From NCBI GenBank assembly GCA_963797095.1, contig CAWCNY010000002.1, positions 800,001-864,000 of the forward strand: 64,000 bases of DNA, in the 5' to 3' direction. The number at the start of each line of letters is the position of its first letter. Positions within the stretch are counted from its first letter, which is position 1. Shown here piece by piece: positions 2,908 through 64,000 of this stretch. Below the pieces are notes generated by a model. That model was not told the origin of the DNA. It was given only the letters and a program-made list of their open reading frames with translations, and searched no databases. The translations under genes were made by a program, and so were the position numbers. Source of the DNA: an uncultured Chloroflexia bacterium. GTDB lineage: Bacteria; Chloroflexota; Chloroflexia; QHBQ01; JADMIH01.

Positions 2908-4393
2908 GTAAATGTCCAGAGTTGCGGTGGGGCAATTTCCACGATATTGTATGAGGCATGAGCTGGGAAGAAGAAGTAATGGCTTTGCGGGCTGAAGTAG
3001 TCATCCTCAAAGAGCAGCTTGCCCAAGCATTGGCTGCGAACAGCCAGTTGCAGGCACAACTAGACAAGTACCGAAGCGAACCACCCTCTTTCGTCAAGCC
3101 CAACACTGCCAAGTCCAAAGACCAGGCTAACTCCGAGAAGAAACCACGCCGCAAACGAGCCAAAGACCAAAATGGTGCCAGGCGTAGAGAGCAAACGCCT
3201 ACCCAAACGGTGCAGCACCACATAGAGATGTGCCCTGACTGTGGATATGGACTAAGCCAGCCCCAACTGGCCTCCGGCTCCAGACGCCAGGTGATAGAAC
3301 TCCCTCCTCCCCTTCCTGTAGAAGTCACCGAGCACCAGTTGTTCAAGAGTTGGTGCGCCCGATGCTCCAAATGGCATTATCCTCCACTCGATTTGAGCGC
3401 TCAGGGGGAGGTGATTGGACAAAGCAGAATGGGGATACGCATCGCCTCCCTGATAGCTTACTTACGCACCACCCTGAGAATGCCGGTGCGTCTGATTAGA
3501 GAATACCTGCACATCGTGCACAACTTGCTCATCTCTACAGGTGAGGTTGCGGACCTGCTGCACCGAGTGGCCGAGGCAGAGAAGGTGAGAAAAGCAGCAC
3601 AAGATATCAAAGAGGAGGTAAGACAGAGCAGTGTGGTGCATGGGGACGAGACAGGGTGGCGAGAAGGTGGGCAGAATGGCTATATCTGGTGCTTCTGCAC
3701 GCCCCATGGTGAGCGATACTACGAGTACGACAAGAGCCGGGGAGGAGCAGTGGCCAGGCGTATCCTCGGCTCACAGTTCAAGGGTACACTGGTCACCGAC
3801 TTCTACGCGGCACACAATGAATTCCCAGGAGAACACCAACGATGCTGGGTGCATCTGCTGAGGGACTTACACGAGTTGAAGGAAGAGCACAAAGGGAATG
3901 AAGAAGTGGTGGAGTGGGCCAAAGGGGTGCGGGTTCTGTATGACACAGCCCAAGAGTGCCTGCGAGCTGAACAGTGCGAACAGGGTGAACACGGTCCACC
4001 TTCTGCGGTAGAGAGAGAAGTGTTGTACATTGAGCTAATGGAGGGTGTGAGAGAGTTGGGAGGCAAGTACGCCTCAGCCAAGCCTCACAAGGAGCACCCA
4101 TGTCATGCTCTGTGCAAGAGGTTGCTTCGCCACCAGGACGAGCTATTCCGCTTCGTACTACAAAGTGGCCTCTCGGCGGACAACAACCTGGCGGAGAGGA
4201 GTGTGCGGGCGGTGGTGGTGATGCGCAAGGTGTCGGGAGGGTCGCAATCAGCAAGGGGGAGTGCCACACGCATGAGGCTGGCTACATTGTTCGGCACCTG
4301 GCGAGCTAAGGGTCTCAACCCCTTCTTTGAGTGTTTCACCCTTCTCTCTCAACCCCAACCCCAGCCCCTCACACCCTAAATCTGAACGCTATC
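2908..4393 (+). mobile_element. IS66-family element (single-ORF type)
   Basis: 8-bp direct repeat CGCGCTGA at 2900-2907 and 4394-4401. Imperfect terminal IRs (GTAAATGTCCAGA / GATAGCGTTCAGA). Confidence 0.88.
2958..4379 (+). CDS. IS66 transposase (TnpC type)
   Basis: N-terminal coiled coil, CxxC zinc finger, and motifs HGDETGW, LVTDFYAAH, QRCWVHLLR, DNNLAERSVR. Confidence 0.95.
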   Translation: MSWEEEVMALRAEVVILKEQLAQALAANSQLQAQLDKYRSEPPSFVKPNTAKSKDQANSEKKPRRKRAKDQNGARRREQTPTQTVQHHIEMCPDCGYGLSQPQLASGSRRQVIELPPPLPVEVTEHQLFKSWCARCSKWHYPPLDLSAQGEVIGQSRMGIRIASLIAYLRTTLRMPVRLIREYLHIVHNLLISTGEVADLLHRVAEAEKVRKAAQDIKEEVRQSSVVHGDETGWREGGQNGYIWCFCTPHGERYYEYDKSRGGAVARRILGSQFKGTLVTDFYAAHNEFPGEHQRCWVHLLRDLHELKEEHKGNEEVVEWAKGVRVLYDTAQECLRAEQCEQGEHGPPSAVEREVLYIELMEGVRELGGKYASAKPHKEHPCHALCKRLLRHQDELFRFVLQSGLSADNNLAERSVRAVVVMRKVSGGSQSARGSATRMRLATLFGTWRAKGLNPFFECFTLLSQPQPQPLTP

Positions 4394-30901: not shown

Positions 30902-32812
30902 TTATTGCATTGATTTGGCTTCGGCCAGTAGTTGTTGGACTACTTTTTCGTTCTTGTCGTAGTTGCCTTCGCCGTAGTGGGTGTAGCGCAGGTGACCGTT
31001 TGCGTCTATGAAGTAGAAGGCGGGCCAGTAGTGGTTGCTGTAGGCTCGCCAGGTTTTGTAGTCGGGGTCGAGCACTACGGGCCACACTACACCTAGCTTC
31101 TTGGAGTTCTCCTGGACGTTGCTTAGTACGCGCTCGTAGGCGAATTCGGGGGTGTGAACGCCTATGATTTCGAGGCCCTGGTCGTGGTATTTGCTGTAGA
31201 GGTCTCGCACGTAGGGGATGGTGTTGATGCAGTTATAGCAGCCGAAGGTCCAGAAGTCTACTATCACTACTTTACCGCGCAGGCTTGCGAGGGTCAGCGG
31301 ATCGGAGTTGATCCAGTCGGTGGTGCCGGTAATCTCAGGGGCAACGCCGAGGTCTTTGAGGGCGATGCCGGGTCTGGGGGTTGGGGTCATTGTCATGGTT
31401 GGTTCCGGTGTAGAGGTGGCCGTAGCGGTGGGCTGCGGCCTGGGGGTGGAAGTGGCTGCGGGTGCGGCGGGTGCGGCGGGTGCGGCGGGTGCGGCGACCA
31501 TACCACCCATGTTTACGTTGGCGGTGTTCTTTGCTTCGGCCAGTAGCTCCTGGACAACGAGATCGTTGTTATCGTAGTTGCCTTCGCCGATGTGCTTGTA
31601 CCTGATACGGCCCGTGGCGTCTACGAAGTAGAAGGCGGGCCACCAGTGGTTATCGTAGGAGCGCCAGGTCTTGTAGTCGGGGTCGAATGCGACGGGCCAA
31701 TCGATATCCTGCGCCTGAATCGCGTTCTCTACGTTGGCGGGGACGTACTCGAAAGATAGCTCAGGTGTATGAACGCCTATGATTTCGAGGCCCTGGTCGT
31801 GATACTTCTCGTAGAGAGCCTGCACATAGGGGCGGGTGTTCGCGCAGTTGTAGCAGGCGTAGGTCCAGAAGTCTATGAGGACCACTTTGCCGCGCAGGTC
31901 AGCCATAGTCAGTGGTTCGGAGTTCCACCACTGGGTGATGCCTGTCAGTTCGGGGGCCTGGCCCAGGTCTTCGAGGGGAACGGCGGGTGTGGGCGTGACC
32001 AGAGGCTCGGTTACCTCGGCTCCGGGAGCGGTCGCGACGGTTTCTTGAGTGCCCTCGGCATCTCTCTGCAATTGATCCAGTTGCGCCTCGACAGCGTCGC
32101 TGCGCTCGAACGATTGGAGGAAGGTGCTGTATTCGGGCGGGAGACCTTGCAAGGTGAGGGTTTGGAGGGCAGTGTCGGCTCCGAGGAAGAGGGCCACGCA
32201 TGCCACTATGGTGAAGGCTCCGAACGCCTGCTTGATGAGGTTGGTACGCGGGCCTAGCTTGCGGGCACGTATCGCCAAACCGCGCCCGCCGTAAGCAAGC
32301 AAGAGCATGGGGAGGGCGGTGCCGAGAGAGTAGGCCAGGGTGATCAAGATCGCCTGGGGTGTGAGGCCGACGGTGGCGGTGAGGCCGATCACGGAGGCCA
32401 TGATGGGGCCAACGCAGGGCGCCCACAGGAGGCCAAGCCCACCGCCGATCAGGAGGCCGCCGTTGAAGCCGCCGCGATTGCGAGTGCCGGGGGCCAGCCG
32501 TGTGAGGGGTGAGAGAAGGCGGTCGACGCGGTCGCCTAGGGCGGGTATAAGGAGGGTGAGGCCGAACAAGCCGAGGAGGACGATAGAGGCTATTCGCAGC
32601 CAGGTGGCGGGTACGGCGAGCACTTCGGCGGCTGCGGTGACGGCCAACGTCACGACGGTGAAGGTGAGGGCGAGGCCGAGCACTATGCCAACCGGGCGCA
32701 TCTTACCGCCACCGGTGGAGGTGGAGAGAAGGATGGGAAGGACGGGGAGGACGCAAGGCGAGATGATAGTCACCACGCCTGCCAGGAAGGCGAAAAGGAG
32801 CAAAAGTTCCAT
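30902..32812 (-). CDS. DipZ-like protein: CcdA/DsbD membrane domain plus two TlpA-like thioredoxin domains
   Basis: ISPCVLPVLP and WAPCVGP in the TM domain; DFWTYACYNC and DFWTFGCYNC domains separated by an A/P/T linker. Confidence 0.9.
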   Translation of the reverse strand: MELLLLFAFLAGVVTIISPCVLPVLPILLSTSTGGGKMRPVGIVLGLALTFTVVTLAVTAAAEVLAVPATWLRIASIVLLGLFGLTLLIPALGDRVDRLLSPLTRLAPGTRNRGGFNGGLLIGGGLGLLWAPCVGPIMASVIGLTATVGLTPQAILITLAYSLGTALPMLLLAYGGRGLAIRARKLGPRTNLIKQAFGAFTIVACVALFLGADTALQTLTLQGLPPEYSTFLQSFERSDAVEAQLDQLQRDAEGTQETVATAPGAEVTEPLVTPTPAVPLEDLGQAPELTGITQWWNSEPLTMADLRGKVVLIDFWTYACYNCANTRPYVQALYEKYHDQGLEIIGVHTPELSFEYVPANVENAIQAQDIDWPVAFDPDYKTWRSYDNHWWPAFYFVDATGRIRYKHIGEGNYDNNDLVVQELLAEAKNTANVNMGGMVAAPAAPAAPAAPAATSTPRPQPTATATSTPEPTMTMTPTPRPGIALKDLGVAPEITGTTDWINSDPLTLASLRGKVVIVDFWTFGCYNCINTIPYVRDLYSKYHDQGLEIIGVHTPEFAYERVLSNVQENSKKLGVVWPVVLDPDYKTWRAYSNHYWPAFYFIDANGHLRYTHYGEGNYDKNEKVVQQLLAEAKSMQ

Positions 32813-36036: not shown

Positions 36037-38508
36037 ATGCGATCATCCTTACTAATCGGGCGGTTCGGGCCGCTGTCGGTGAGTTTGAACTATACATGGC
36101 TGTTTATCTCAGTGCTTGGCCTGTGGGGACTGGCGCTCGTGTGGCTCCCCGACAACTTCCCACAATGGTCGTCGGGCCTCTACTGGTTGGTGGCAATAGC
36201 TGTAATGGGCCTGTTCCTGCTCAGCTTGATCTTGCGCGAACTGGTGCGCGCCGCCATCGCGGGGTTCGACAGGCGCGGCATAACACTGTACCCATTTGGC
36301 GCTGCCACTCCCTACCGGCTGGATGAGATCGGAACGGGGCGGGCGTTGGTGTCGATGGTCGTGGCTCCCCTGTTCAATCTGGTGGCGGGCATAACGCTGT
36401 TGGTGTTGGCAGGAACCCTGGAAGGCGCAAGCGGTCTGGGCGAGCTTACATGGGCTATGTTGGTTCCGCTTGCGTGGCTCAACCTGTGGGTGGGGGTTAT
36501 CAATCTAATCCCCGGCATACCTTTCGATGGAGGCCGGGTGCTGACCAATACATTGTTCTGGTTTTCGGGGCAACGCGAACAGGGATTGGGCTTTACAAGG
36601 ACCGTGGGCGAGATCACATCGCTGGGACTGGTACTGCTTGGGGCCTGGATCGGACTCACTTCGCAGAACTGGATAGTGGCGCTTGCCCTCGTCGTGCTTG
36701 GCTGGGGCGCAAGAGAGGCCGAGGAGAAGGGGAAGCAACTGAGCATTTTGCGCACCGGGCTATCTGAGATAAAGGCGGGGGACATAATGGAGGAGGCCGC
36801 ACCTCAAGACCGAATCCCCGCCAACGCATCGGTAGCGCAGATGATGTATTCCCACCAATATTATGCTACCGACAAACCACTGCCGGTGATGAAGCGCGGT
36901 GATGAGGGTGGAGGAAGCGAAAAGATGGTGGGTGTGGTGACTCTGGCACAGGCCGAGGACTTATTGCAAGGGGATTGGCCTACTACGCCTGTGACATCTT
37001 TGATGTCTTCGCCCACGGAAGTAACATCACTCGCACCGGGTACACCTCTCGCCGAGGTGATTGAGCTCATAGAGAAACGAGGTACGAACGCGGACGAACA
37101 GGCCGCGGTGCCCGTTATCGCAGGTGGGGAGTTGCTGGGCAGCATTGACCCTGCCAGGTTGGCGGCATTTGAACAGGCGGAATTCGAGCTGGGAGCAGTC
37201 GAAGCGCCTCTCCCGGACGGAGACGGCGCTGGGTTCTTTGCCAGGATCAAGGGTGTACTGCCTGCTTTGACTGTACTGATCGCGCTTGCGATCCTGGGCA
37301 ATGTCGCGATCAGCTCTGATCCCTACAGCTTGCGCAATATAAGTAGGGCCGAGGCGGCGGCACCGATTGCGTTCGCGGATATGCTTCCGTCACCTGGGGC
37401 GCTCGTATCCGGTGACGTGATCAGCATTAACGCCATTGCGATCAGCGCGCAAACGATCACCACGGCTAGCCTCACGCTGGATGGGACCCCGCTGCCTGTG
37501 AGCCTGGCCGGGGCAAACCCGTACCAACAGGTCATAAGCGCACAGGCCCTTAGCCCCGGCGACGGGATTCATACGCTTGTGCTGGTGGTAGCCGATCGAA
37601 TTGGCAGGCTAGGGCGCACCGAATGGCAGTTCTGGGAGGGGGCGATTGGTACACCTACGCCAACGACCGCAGCAAGTGTCTCTACGCTCGAAATAGGAGG
37701 GCGCCAACCCGCGCCGGGTGGGCTTGTATTAGCCCAGAGTCCGGCGGAGAGCAGAATAGGGTTCGTTATCTCATGGGAAGAGCCAATAAGCGGGGTGCAA
37801 TTGCTCATTGATGGGATCGAAACACCTGCCGCCCTCGAGCCGGTTGCCGGCACAGGCAATCAATACAGAGTGACTGCCTCAACTGCCAACCTTACGGTGG
37901 GAAGCCACACAATCCGCGCCAATATCGCAGGGAATGGAGGCATCGTGTATGCCACCGATTGGACGTTTCAGGCTATCGTGCCCGACGACCAGAATGCCTA
38001 CTTTGAGCAAACCGGCTTGTTTGTCTCCGGCGCTTTCTATGATTTCTGGACAGCGAATGGCGGACTGGATATCTTCGGCTACCCAATCTCCGACCGAGTG
38101 AGCGAAACCGATCCGGACACAGGCGAGGTATACACAGCGCAGTATTTCGAGCGTGCTCGCTTCGAGTTGCACCCATCGCTCGGTAATACCGTGCTGCTCG
38201 GCAGGTTGGGCCTAAAAGTTCATATGCCGGACCCACCGGCCACCGCCAACCCTGACGCGAACTACTTCACAGAGACGGGGCATAACCTCTCCGGCCAATT
38301 CCTTGAGTTCTGGCAGACGCGAGGCGGTCTGGCAATCTTTGGCTACCCCATCAGCGAGGAGCTCACCGAAACCAGCCCTCAGGACGGCAACGAGTACGTT
38401 GTGCAGTATTTCGAGCGCGCCAAGTTCGAGCTTCACCCGGAGTTGGCAGGCACCCCTTATGAGGTGCAGATCGCGCAGCTTGGCACACTTGTTTACCAGA
38501 GCAGGTAG
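36037..38508 (+). CDS. M50/site-2-protease-like membrane protein (degenerate HExxH) with CBS pair, TM, Ig-like domains and duplicated YFERARFE surface domain
   Basis: AAGGAGG RBS. NLIPGIPFDGGR is retained, but the HExxH position reads RELVR. CBS-like region follows; C-terminal GGL.IFGYPIS...QYFERA.FE x2. Confidence 0.8.
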   Translation: MRSSLLIGRFGPLSVSLNYTWLFISVLGLWGLALVWLPDNFPQWSSGLYWLVAIAVMGLFLLSLILRELVRAAIAGFDRRGITLYPFGAATPYRLDEIGTGRALVSMVVAPLFNLVAGITLLVLAGTLEGASGLGELTWAMLVPLAWLNLWVGVINLIPGIPFDGGRVLTNTLFWFSGQREQGLGFTRTVGEITSLGLVLLGAWIGLTSQNWIVALALVVLGWGAREAEEKGKQLSILRTGLSEIKAGDIMEEAAPQDRIPANASVAQMMYSHQYYATDKPLPVMKRGDEGGGSEKMVGVVTLAQAEDLLQGDWPTTPVTSLMSSPTEVTSLAPGTPLAEVIELIEKRGTNADEQAAVPVIAGGELLGSIDPARLAAFEQAEFELGAVEAPLPDGDGAGFFARIKGVLPALTVLIALAILGNVAISSDPYSLRNISRAEAAAPIAFADMLPSPGALVSGDVISINAIAISAQTITTASLTLDGTPLPVSLAGANPYQQVISAQALSPGDGIHTLVLVVADRIGRLGRTEWQFWEGAIGTPTPTTAASVSTLEIGGRQPAPGGLVLAQSPAESRIGFVISWEEPISGVQLLIDGIETPAALEPVAGTGNQYRVTASTANLTVGSHTIRANIAGNGGIVYATDWTFQAIVPDDQNAYFEQTGLFVSGAFYDFWTANGGLDIFGYPISDRVSETDPDTGEVYTAQYFERARFELHPSLGNTVLLGRLGLKVHMPDPPATANPDANYFTETGHNLSGQFLEFWQTRGGLAIFGYPISEELTETSPQDGNEYVVQYFERAKFELHPELAGTPYEVQIAQLGTLVYQSR

Positions 38509-61008: not shown

Positions 61009-61767
61009 TTACTTCTTTATTTCGGCGTATGTTGGGTGAGGGAGGAAACCCCAATGGTCCTGGGGCCAGTAAGAAACAAACGCTGTGCCTACTATACTTT
61101 CAATAGTAATAGCGTGCTCAGGGAAGACGTGCGAGTCGCTGGAGTTGCGCCTGTTATCTCCCAGCACGAACACACGGTCTTTCTGGACTGTGAATGGCCC
61201 GAAGTTGTAGTCGGGCGTCTGCTTTATATACGGCTCGTCCAGTTTGACCCCATTGATGTACACCCCGCAGGCGCCGCAATCGCGCTCAGGGTTGCCAATG
61301 GGGTCGGGGTCGGCCTTGATCTCGACCGTTTCGCCCTCGACCGCTATCACCCGCTTGATGAAATCCTTATCCTCTATAGGCGCTTGAAAGACGATGATAT
61401 CGCCGCGCTGAGGCCCATGGAAGAGATAGCGCATATCAGGCTGGATGTCTTTGTTCAAGATCCGCGCCAGGAAATTGGCGTCGTAGCGATAATAAAGGCC
61501 GCTGTTTACAAGCAGGCGCTCCTCGGTGTGGAGCGTAGGGAGCATACTGTCGCCCTCGACCTTGAAGTTCTGGACGACCGAGCGCACCATGAAGAAAATA
61601 AGCAGGGTAATGAGAACCGTCTCGATAATATCGCGGACGGCGCTCTTGCCCATTCCTCTACCGGGATAAGCCAGGTCTTCGGATACACTATCGCTGTCAA
61701 AGTCGGGAACGTAAGGTAGGCGTTGTTCGGAATGCCACCACGTATCATTGTCACTTTCTATTCGCAT
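61009..61767 (-). CDS. lepB: Signal peptidase I
   Basis: GDSMLPTL (catalytic Ser), FIKRVIA (catalytic Lys), FVLGDNRRNSSDS. Confidence 0.95.
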   Translation of the reverse strand: MRIESDNDTWWHSEQRLPYVPDFDSDSVSEDLAYPGRGMGKSAVRDIIETVLITLLIFFMVRSVVQNFKVEGDSMLPTLHTEERLLVNSGLYYRYDANFLARILNKDIQPDMRYLFHGPQRGDIIVFQAPIEDKDFIKRVIAVEGETVEIKADPDPIGNPERDCGACGVYINGVKLDEPYIKQTPDYNFGPFTVQKDRVFVLGDNRRNSSDSHVFPEHAITIESIVGTAFVSYWPQDHWGFLPHPTYAEIKK

Positions 61768-61948
61768 CTTGATCTCTTTTTGTGCCGCGAGGAATTTGCT
61801 TTCCATTATATAGCATGGAACGGGCCAGGCCCTATATATAACGTAATTATATACGCTGAGTATTACATGCGCAATCGGCGGCTTGGTTGTACAATGAGCC
61901 CTGGATAGTACTCATGCCCGACTTGTGGGGTGAATGGGAGGGACAAAG

Positions 61949-63469
61949 ATGGTAAATAGAGTAATGGAAACGTATCCGGCCCCGCCGTTCCAGCCGGGGT
62001 TGGATTGGATCAATACGGGTGGAAAGGCGCTGACCTTAGAGGATTTGCGCGGGAAGCTGCTGTTGCTCGATTTCTGGACCTACGGTTGAATCAACTGCAT
62101 GCATATATTGCCGGTGGTGCACCGGCTTGAAGAAAAGTACGCAAATGATCTCACAGTAGTGGGGGTGCATGCCGGTAAGTTTATCGCCGAGAGGGTGACC
62201 GAGAACATCAGAACGGCCACGCGGCGGCTTGGGGTCGCTCACCCGGTAGTGAACGACAGGCATTTCAGAACGTGGCGATCCTATGGCGTGCAAGCATGGC
62301 CCACTGTAGTCTTAGTCAGCCCCGATGGGCAATATATCGGCCAGCATTCAGGCGAGTTTACCTTCGAGCAGTTCGACCAGATCATCGGCGGTCTGGCCCA
62401 GGCTTATCGACAGGAGGGCCTGTTGATCGATGGGCCTCTACACTTTCTTGTGGACCCTGATCCCACCCCATCTTCTCTATTGCGGTTTCCGGGCAAGGTG
62501 CTCGCCGATGCGGTAGGCGGGCGGCTATTTATCTCAGATACCGCCAACAACCGTGTGCTGGTAGCAGCTGTTAGTGAACCTGGCGGAGTTGCCACCATTG
62601 TGAGCGTGATAGGGGACGGGGTATCAGGATTTCAGGACGGAGCCCTTGCCGAGGCTCAACTGAACCACCCCGAAGGCCTCGCTTTGCAGGAGGATACGCT
62701 GTACGTCGCCGATAAGGAGAATCATTCGATCCGGGCGGCTAACCTGGCGCAAGGCACACTCGAAACTATCGCCGGGACCGGGCAGATCGGCTATAGCAGG
62801 GAAGGCGGGATGGGCCGCGATGTGGCCCTGAACTCGCCCTGGGACTTGCTTGAAAGCGACAACTATCTCTACATAGCCATGGCGGGCAGGCACCAGATAT
62901 GGAGGATGGTGCTCAGCACGGGGCGTGTGGACCCGTTTGTTGGGAGCGGACGCGAGAACATAGACGACAACCTGAACAGGAGCGCCACCCTTGCCCAACC
63001 CAGCGGGCTTACCACGGACGAACAGCGCCTCTTCTTCGCCGACAGCGAGTTGAGTGCGGTGCGGGCAGCCGATTTCTCGCCCGATGGCTACACACAAACT
63101 CTGGTAGGGAGCGGCCTGTTCGACTTCGGCGACAAGGAAGGCAAGACCCTCGAAGCTAAGTTGCAACACTGTCTTGGCGTAGCCTATTACGAGGGCGGCA
63201 TACTTATCGCTGACACATACAACAACAAGATCAAGAGACTTGACCTGAGTGCAAAGGAAATAATAACTCTCCTGGGTTCTGGGAAACCTGATCAGTTGTA
63301 CGAGCCTGGCGGCCTATCGATCTGGGATGGTCAGGACAGCGCACGACTGTACATCGCTGATACCAACAACCACCGTGTGCTGGTATCGGTGATCAACAGC
63401 GATGGTACACTATCTCCTCCATCGGTTGTGGAGATCATCTTTCCCGGTGCCACAAGCAACGAATCGTAA
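61949..63469 (+). CDS. Thioredoxin-like plus NHL-repeat protein, probable selenoprotein (TGA at 62087-62089 = codon 47)
   Basis: GGGAGG RBS and ATG 61949. Reads ...WINT...[19 protein letters not shown]...GVHAGKF...AWPT..., then NHL repeats ([33 protein letters not shown]). Confidence 0.85.
62110..62126 (+). promoter_or_regulatory. Candidate bacterial SECIS hairpin
   Basis: GCCGGT-GGTGC-ACCGGC. The G-led loop begins about 27 nt after the TGA. Confidence 0.55.
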
Positions 63470-63484
63470 GATTACATCCAGGAG

Positions 63485-64000
63485 TTAGTGCGCGGCGATC
63501 CCCAACCAGATCGCGTCGATCACGGATTGGAGCCATTGATCGTCTTCAGCCTGCCCCGCGATATGGCGTGCGAAGATTGAGCCCGCAATCATCTGGGTAA
63601 TAACTTCAACCTGTATATCGGATCGTACATCTCCGCGCTCGATCCCCCTGCGAAGTATGTCTGACATCGCTTCCATGCGTGGGTAGATGACCAGGCTCCG
63701 GAAAAGCTCAATCAGTTCTGGATCTTCGCGCTCTTTGACCAACACAGTGCCGAGCATTGAATAGAGATTACGCGCTTTCAGTATCCTATGAAATTGGCCC
63801 ACAAACTTGTAGAGGTCGGCACGCACATCGCCCGAATCTGCATAGGTCTCCAAAGTGTTAGCAAGCGACGACACGGCAGCCACCACAAGTTCACGCTTGC
63901 CGGGGTAGCGCCTGTAGATGGTGGTTTTGCCCACCCCTGCGGCTGCGGCCACCCCTTCCATAGACATAGCATCATACCCCTGCTCAACGAGCAACTGGAG
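63485..64000 (-). CDS. TetR/AcrR-family regulator (5' end outside the window)
   Basis: GYDAMSMEGVAAAAGVGKTTIYRRYPGK; GIERGDVR. Confidence 0.93.
   Translation of the reverse strand, partial: LQLLVEQGYDAMSMEGVAAAAGVGKTTIYRRYPGKRELVVAAVSSLANTLETYADSGDVRADLYKFVGQFHRILKARNLYSMLGTVLVKEREDPELIELFRSLVIYPRMEAMSDILRRGIERGDVRSDIQVEVITQMIAGSIFARHIAGQAEDDQWLQSVIDAIWLGIAAH

Follow-up and report, generated by a model that had tools for sequence, protein, structure and literature searches.

We can best explain a gene near the end of the window, by which we mean the whole 64,000-nt stretch of DNA that was analysed, as coding for a full-length selenoprotein of 506 aa, and we hold with good confidence that its product is a cytoplasmic redox enzyme of the NHLRC2/SOQ1 family with Sec47 as nucleophile. 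Judged from the comparison of orthologous sequences, the first step of this explanation, the recoding of UGA47 as Sec, is almost certain.

Reading frame and codon 47

The program-made ORF list of the window begins the gene only at 62099 (Table 1). The initial annotation had placed a ribosome-binding site and an ATG at 61949, followed by 46 TlpA-like codons, and translation of this frame agreed with it: a GGAGG precedes the ATG by 7 nt, 46 codons lead to a TGA as codon 47, and 459 further codons stay open up to the TAA at 63467-63469. A second in-frame ATG is located at 61934, 5' of the start ATG. As had also been claimed, the TGA at 62087-62089 falls exactly on the first Cys of CxxC (DFWTYG*INC). 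Of the 84 database proteins most similar to ours, 80 are without the DFWT/DFMT segment before codon 47, and the four full-length entries are Cys forms. DFMT is the form of this segment in six loci of the genus. Shortened entries are the expected product of a gene caller meeting a Sec codon.

Table 1. Features of the Trx-NHL gene, in window coordinates.
Feature	Position	Strand	Description	Basis
Shine-Dalgarno-like GGAGG	61937..61941	+	7 nt upstream of ATG 61949	sequence
Full gene	61949..63469	+	506 aa if TGA = Sec; Trx-like domain + six-bladed NHL propeller	
Thioredoxin-like (Trx8/TlpA-type) domain	61976..62413	+	residues ~10-155	Pfam Thioredoxin_8 E 9.3e-14; model
In-frame TGA, predicted Sec47	62087..62089	+	DFWTYG*INC; first Cys of CxxC = second Cys of CCINC	
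Cys50, predicted resolving Cys of UxxC	62096..62098	+	invariant, 114/114 aligned rows	
Internal ATG, false start in gene calls	62099..62101	+	456-aa database product P0001	
Bacterial SECIS-type hairpin	62110..62126	+	GCCGGUG-GUG-CACCGGC, 7-bp stem, 3-nt GUG loop closed by G-C, -12.5 kcal/mol	
Six-bladed NHL beta-propeller	62477..63394	+	residues ~177-482	Pfam, alignment, model

The homologues were then compared at the codon-47 column, for which the initial annotation had suggested a search for TGA/Cys alternation. Across 41 genomes, 32 of the 34 best orthologue places (E <= 1.6e-45) carry one TGA, or 28 of 30 without the four places in genomes marked unpublished, and all later claims stand independent of these four; each of the 30 fetched loci of this set carries TGA, TGC or TGT at the column. 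In an even draw of 401 genomes of the phylum, 77 gave a match (E <= 1e-35) and 58 of these 77, the host genome included, had a TGA. The column was checked in 27 of the 29 loci fetched from this draw (24 TGA, 3 TGC), and the two unparsed loci, L058 and L086, are outside all column counts. The named close relatives belong to Chloroflexia. Beyond this phylum, TGA forms were found in Gemmatimonadota, Actinomycetota and Armatimonadota among the best 80 of 351 loci in the named genome collection, which also contributed many Cys forms. De-duplication of the overlapping locus sets by sequence led to 55 distinct TGA (Sec) forms and 66 distinct TGC/TGT (Cys) forms, so that the suggested alternation was indeed found; Trp was never seen.

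If the TGA were a true stop, caused by a nonsense mutation, a sequencing error or a split gene, the products would be a fragment of 46 aa and, from 62099 on, a propeller protein of 456 aa, and the in-frame ATG four codons on and the shortened form of 80 of the top 84 database matches could be taken in this sense. This reading is hardly credible, since about 55 distinct orthologues, spread over at least four phyla, share a TGA at this column and TGC/TGT are its only alternatives, the 46 upstream codons are conserved and the downstream frames open in these TGA orthologues, and a covarying hairpin goes with the TGA. A nonsense change from TGC/TGT, named in the initial annotation as the alternative to Sec, is excluded by the occurrence of TGA with intact downstream frames in at least four phyla.

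On a tree of 114 proteins (quick search, SH-aLRT only, midpoint root, the site set to C in all rows) the Sec/Cys label switches at least 5-6 times. The sister pair to the clade of our gene consists of Cys forms nested among Sec genes. For the two nearest Cys genes a Sec-to-Cys reversion is read from the loss of the hairpin and the retention of selA in their genomes.

Some single loci deserve mention in their own right. A Chthonomonadia record (L119) has a TGA near locus position 3106 inside a Cys clade; its protein carries a lipoprotein-like leader and a CTD Cys pair, almost no SECIS-like hairpin is seen, and selA and selB are in the genome. This may possibly be an independent Cys-to-Sec gain in an exported subfamily, or else a nonsense change. 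One genome (G234) holds two equal-scoring copies of the TGA gene, inverted and about 5 kb apart (G234:C157:32174-32584 (-) and 37885-38295 (+)), which reflect either a duplication or an assembly artefact, and two TGA copies were also observed in G009 and G418.

The hairpin and the selenocysteine machinery

SelB with GTP and Sec-tRNA binds a hairpin 3' of the UGA and decodes the codon as Sec. A hairpin with a G-led loop about 27 nt downstream had been pointed out in the initial annotation, and the loop of the hairpin at 62110-62126 does begin 27 nt after the UGA. The element lies within all four constraints published for bacterial SECIS elements, which in the available text of PMC13188914 are given as a 3-9 nt loop, a 4-16 bp stem with G in the first two loop positions, a distance of 16-37 nt from the UGA and an MFE <= -7.5 kcal/mol. 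The single fold goes only modestly beyond chance, with 6 of 200 shuffles as stable for 62100-62140 and 42 of 200 for 62090-62140. A comparable G-loop hairpin follows 8,620 of the 168,298 six-frame TGA triplets of the genome (5.1%), in a crude screen whose 200 candidates are mostly spurious and which serves as a background rate only. As the lone fold is weak, the case for a SECIS leans on conservation.

A strong G-loop hairpin (<= -7.5 kcal/mol) was detected after 42 of 55 Sec codons vs 2 of 66 Cys codons, the remaining 13 Sec forms lying above this bar in a strict unbulged-helix test. Within the genus set (n=17), columns 24-29 pair with 35-40 around an N-G-U-S-C loop with 93.8% of cells paired, and compensatory swaps were observed at 27-37 (G-C/U-A/C-G) and 29-35 (C-G/U-A). 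The other families (n=28) have the stem in a different register around A-G-U-U, with 96.9% of cells paired and four pairs changed on both sides. For the cells paired, 0 of 500 shuffles were as high in either set and all slid controls were beaten, and two of five measures in the genus set failed to beat shuffles; as the structures were named from the same sequences and kin are non-independent, these shuffle results are not probabilities. There are only 5 phylogenetically independent Sec/Cys pairs; on average, hairpin and Sec go together in 3.8 of these (p 0.125), the reverse association being found almost never. Conservation of the hairpin, the further check put forward at the outset, has been observed with compensatory changes, and the hairpin is mostly absent from Cys forms.

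The shift of the SECIS register between lineages (62108-62126 and orthologues) is accompanied by a change of the encoded residues, with P-V/A-V-H/R/S in the host genus vs P-Q-L-R elsewhere. The protein sequence of the helix encoded there appears to be under constraint from the RNA signal.

The host genome assembly (6.0 Mb, 93% complete) was searched for the selenocysteine machinery, which the initial annotation had predicted as selA, selB, selC and selD. Its tRNA-Sec reached 69.1 bits vs the Rfam cut-off of 47, SelA, SelB and SelD were all found, and the long-arm tRNA-Sec is the sole tRNA with a UCA anticodon found in the genome. The selD gene has its own single in-frame TGA (G000:C2:243109), and a FdhA gene with one TGA is located at G000:C3:1030912-1034052 (-). 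The hairpin of selD has the apex G-GUG-C, the same as that of the Trx-NHL gene. A separate observation concerns about 25 tRNA genes densely arrayed on one strand at G000:C2:1272514-1283690, with anticodons that largely duplicate others in the genome; this is possibly a mobile tRNA array.

In the phylum draw, selA was detected in 55 of the 57 other TGA-form genomes, and in 17 of 19 Cys-form genomes; as a background, 304 of 401 genomes gave a match in a phylum draw made at identical settings. All five checked TGA-form genomes of Gemmatimonadota, Actinomycetota and Armatimonadota have it as well. As selA is present in 17 of 19 Cys-form genomes, the machinery alone cannot tell Sec from Cys genomes. 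Of the two TGA-form genomes of the draw that gave no selA match, one has selB, and the other (G359), a 160-contig draft with 93% completeness whose TGA form has a good hairpin, gave neither a selA nor a selB match, probably due to the incomplete assembly. This genome, together with the few TGA forms with weak hairpins, would fit a read-through of the UGA without SelB, by misreading as Trp or Cys or by a reassigned code. We consider such a read-through very improbable, as the homologues have Cys and never Trp at the column, the long-arm tRNA-Sec is the only UCA-anticodon tRNA found, and G359 is a draft in 160 contigs.

Fold and active site compared with SOQ1 and NHLRC2

With the TGA read as U, the Pfam families Thioredoxin_8, AhpC-TSA and NHL were found over cut-off, and an AlphaFold model with Cys placed at position 47 had a pLDDT of 92.3. 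Comparison of the model led to a TM of 0.90 with SOQ1 (7DJK; 38% identity) and of 0.89 with NHLRC2 (6GC1; 36% identity), two structures possibly within the training set of the predictor. Both were also the best solved relatives by phmmer, with E 2.2e-105 for SOQ1 and E 3e-89 for NHLRC2, and the homology to NHLRC2/SOQ1 stated in the initial annotation is thus seen in sequence and in fold.

Sec47 aligns with SOQ1 C431 and NHLRC2 C90, and Cys50 with SOQ1 C434. With Arabidopsis SOQ1 (7DJJ, 7DJK) the protein shares the Trx-like domain, the six-bladed NHL propeller and the R478/E859 interface pair, to which R93 and E452 (present in 52 and 49 of 53 Sec rows, respectively) were mapped by counting along the alignment. 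It differs from SOQ1 in that Sec replaces C431 and Gly replaces C430, in the lack of the HAD domain, the membrane anchor and the nDsbD-like CTD with C1006/C1012, and in its predicted cytoplasmic location, SOQ1 being lumenal. Human NHLRC2 (6GC1), the product of the FINCA disease gene, has the same two-domain core and cleft; it carries CCINC (residues 89-93) and a C-terminal domain, whereas the bacterial protein has GUINC and no such domain. Compared to the motif CC(I/V)NC in the available part of PMC6107167, the protein retains the redox pair in the form of U and C and has Gly for the first Cys. This first Cys is variable among the bacterial members: 24 of 55 Sec forms have CUINC, and GCINC is found in 58 of 66 Cys forms. 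A Sec form of NHLRC2 was not found in the available text of PMC6107167, where the passages with 'seleno' concern selenomethionine phasing.

The closest Trx domain outside the NHL proteins is that of DipZ (2HYX, 5CYY; E 1.7e-23), which has no NHL propeller. A DipZ-like gene is also present in the window at 30929-31936 (-), with tandem Trx domains and the motifs DFWTYACYNC and DFWTFGCYNC, both with Cys; the second, used for comparison in the initial annotation, was located at 31258 (-).

The 506-aa protein stops soon after the propeller and has neither a C-terminal nDsbD-like Cys-pair domain nor a signal-like leader. The same short form was found for 49 of 50 full-length Sec proteins, which have no C-terminal relay domain and no hydrophobic leader, and among full-length Cys proteins a C-terminal domain is present in 34 of 60 and a leader in 34 of 60, the leader call being a crude hydropathy test and the sample of forms being biased to close matches. 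In Cys forms the C-terminal domain carries a C-x6/7-C pair. The link between Sec and the absence of the CTD holds at clade level only and has no support from independent pairs. A profile of 35 bacterial CTDs gave no match in the host genome (best E 0.78); a stand-alone CTD partner was thus found nowhere in this genome, nor was a CTD match seen in a separate ORF beside the short Sec forms.

In UxxC redox proteins, Sec occupies the attacking position of CxxC, and from its place in the aligned motif Sec47 is very probably the redox nucleophile. C50 and H74 are invariant across the alignment. W117-P118 form a loop of the cis-Pro type, and both residues are present in all Sec rows (53 of 53) and all Cys rows (61 of 61). 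In Trx folds, a cis-Pro position is usually considered unfavourable for metal binding; the TlpA fold, for its part, can reduce or bind metal sites. A U-x-x-C site that chiefly binds a soft metal (Cu, Hg, Zn) with the help of cleft histidines would agree with the almost invariant H74, H315 and H407. We regard this as improbable, because the cis-Pro-type position is invariant, the homologous pair of SOQ1 takes part in disulfide exchange, with a measured midpoint potential of -274 mV (SOQ1 preprint, available text), and the motif cysteines of NHLRC2 are in the reduced state in the crystals (PMC6107167, available part). In the SOQ1 preprints, C431 and C434 are described as a redox pair required for the function of SOQ1 in vivo.

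Proposed reaction and place among selenoproteins

The reaction of the redox enzyme may be pictured as follows. With SelB on the hairpin that follows after 27 nt, UGA47 would be read as Sec, and the Sec47 selenolate would attack an oxidised sulfur centre of the substrate in the conserved Trx-propeller cleft. Cys50 would resolve the mixed intermediate to give a selenenyl-sulfide, and its re-reduction would be the task of a cytoplasmic thioredoxin or a low-molecular-weight thiol system. An outside substrate would receive the electrons, unlike in the intramolecular relay described for SOQ1, in which the Trx pair hands electrons to the CTD and the methionine sulfoxide reductase (Msr) activity of the lumenal domains is assigned to the CTD cysteines C1006/C1012 (preprint, available text). 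An external acceptor is required, as the protein has no CTD and the genome no match to the CTD profile, and the lack of relay domain and leader in 49 of 50 Sec forms makes it likely that the Sec attacks an outside cytoplasmic substrate. A substrate of the disulfide type, with a specific protein disulfide as first guess, has about even chances. Neither SOQ1 nor NHLRC2 was reported to be active in the insulin reduction assay (SOQ1 preprints and PMC6107167, available parts), and a role as generic disulfide reductase is thus not established.

The same selenoprotein might also reduce a sulfoxide or peroxide directly with Sec47, in the manner of an Msr or a peroxidase, with the selenenic acid resolved by Cys50 and the propeller picking the damaged protein. 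Such chemistry is rather unlikely here, though it comes second after the disulfide: the lumenal domains of SOQ1 do have Msr activity, MsrA, Prx and GPx appear with Sec in the published list, and a CTD that could perform Msr chemistry is lacking in the Sec subfamily. On the other side, the SOQ1 preprint, as far as available, puts this activity on C1006/C1012, which are missing here, and the motif is UxxC and not the TxxU/UxxT of peroxidases.

The surroundings of the gene give no pointer to a substrate or an operon, as no neighbours are conserved: an ORF cluster common to more than 5 of the 66 TGA loci was not found, some of these loci being the same gene fetched twice. This agrees with PMC6107167 on the bacterial homologues of NHLRC2, for which CTD-less forms without a conserved operon have already been described (section 17, in the available text). 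The gene is flanked by a divergent signal peptidase I gene (61009-61806 (-)) and a convergent gene for a TetR-type regulator (63485-64000 (-)) that runs past the window end, and neither neighbour is conserved beyond the closest relative. In a promoter scan no sigma-70-like site was seen, and 2 terminator-like matches were obtained vs 1.1 expected; a plasmid search gave one distant match (45%).

UxxC selenoproteins of the Trx fold are common, and the recoding itself is therefore unsurprising. Those catalogued are a Prx-like thiol:disulfide oxidoreductase, the thiol-disulfide isomerase-like cd02966, Redoxin PF08534, WAxxUGC TlpA and HUIPC, with which our protein shares the Sec at the first CxxC position in a Trx/TlpA fold and a SECIS shortly after the UGA. 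None of them is listed with an NHL propeller (Table 1 of PMC13188914; 119-family 2026 list). The representatives in the deep-Sep supplement (PMC12013277) contain no UINC, UVNC or DFWT, and the Redoxin representative has a different motif. No model of NCBIfam 20.0 reaches its cut-off, the best giving 50.4 bits vs 170 and WAxxUGC 20.2 vs 300. NHL is absent from the available main text of PMC13188914, PMC12013277, PMC9312934, PMC1976440, PMC2398784, PMC5029168, PMC13326102 and the 2022 Haft preprint. None of the papers found by literature searches describes a Trx-NHL protein with Sec, with Haft and Tolstoy 2025, BSepDB, preprint supplements and subscription papers outside the scope of these searches. 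Homology-based surveys may have filed such genes under generic Trx-like or Prx-like labels, and a sizeable selenoprotein family, with TGA forms in 58 of the 401 phylum genomes, appears to be missing from the readable catalogues. The active site is lacking in 80 of the 84 nearest database entries.

Human NHLRC2 is an essential protein linked to disease, and the available text of the 2024 SOQ1 preprint calls the biochemical function of NHLRC2 undetermined. That Sec occupies the second Cys position of CCINC speaks, as evolutionary evidence, for this residue as a catalytic redox nucleophile, and the swap likely marks the redox-active cysteine of the poorly understood NHLRC2/SOQ1 family. Tentatively, and at somewhat less than even chances, we see in these genes an uncatalogued multi-phylum Sec version of NHLRC2/SOQ1, whose CTD-less cleft would act alone on an outside substrate and so expose an ancestral activity. 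With a small, soluble, CTD-less enzyme, available in Sec and Cys versions within one genus, substrate trapping becomes practical. If this view is true, the natural Sec/Cys pair would be a sensitive handle, by 75Se labelling and trapping mutants, on the biochemistry of FINCA disease, and the ancestral, CTD-independent activity of the cleft would be one that C90 of human NHLRC2 may still perform.
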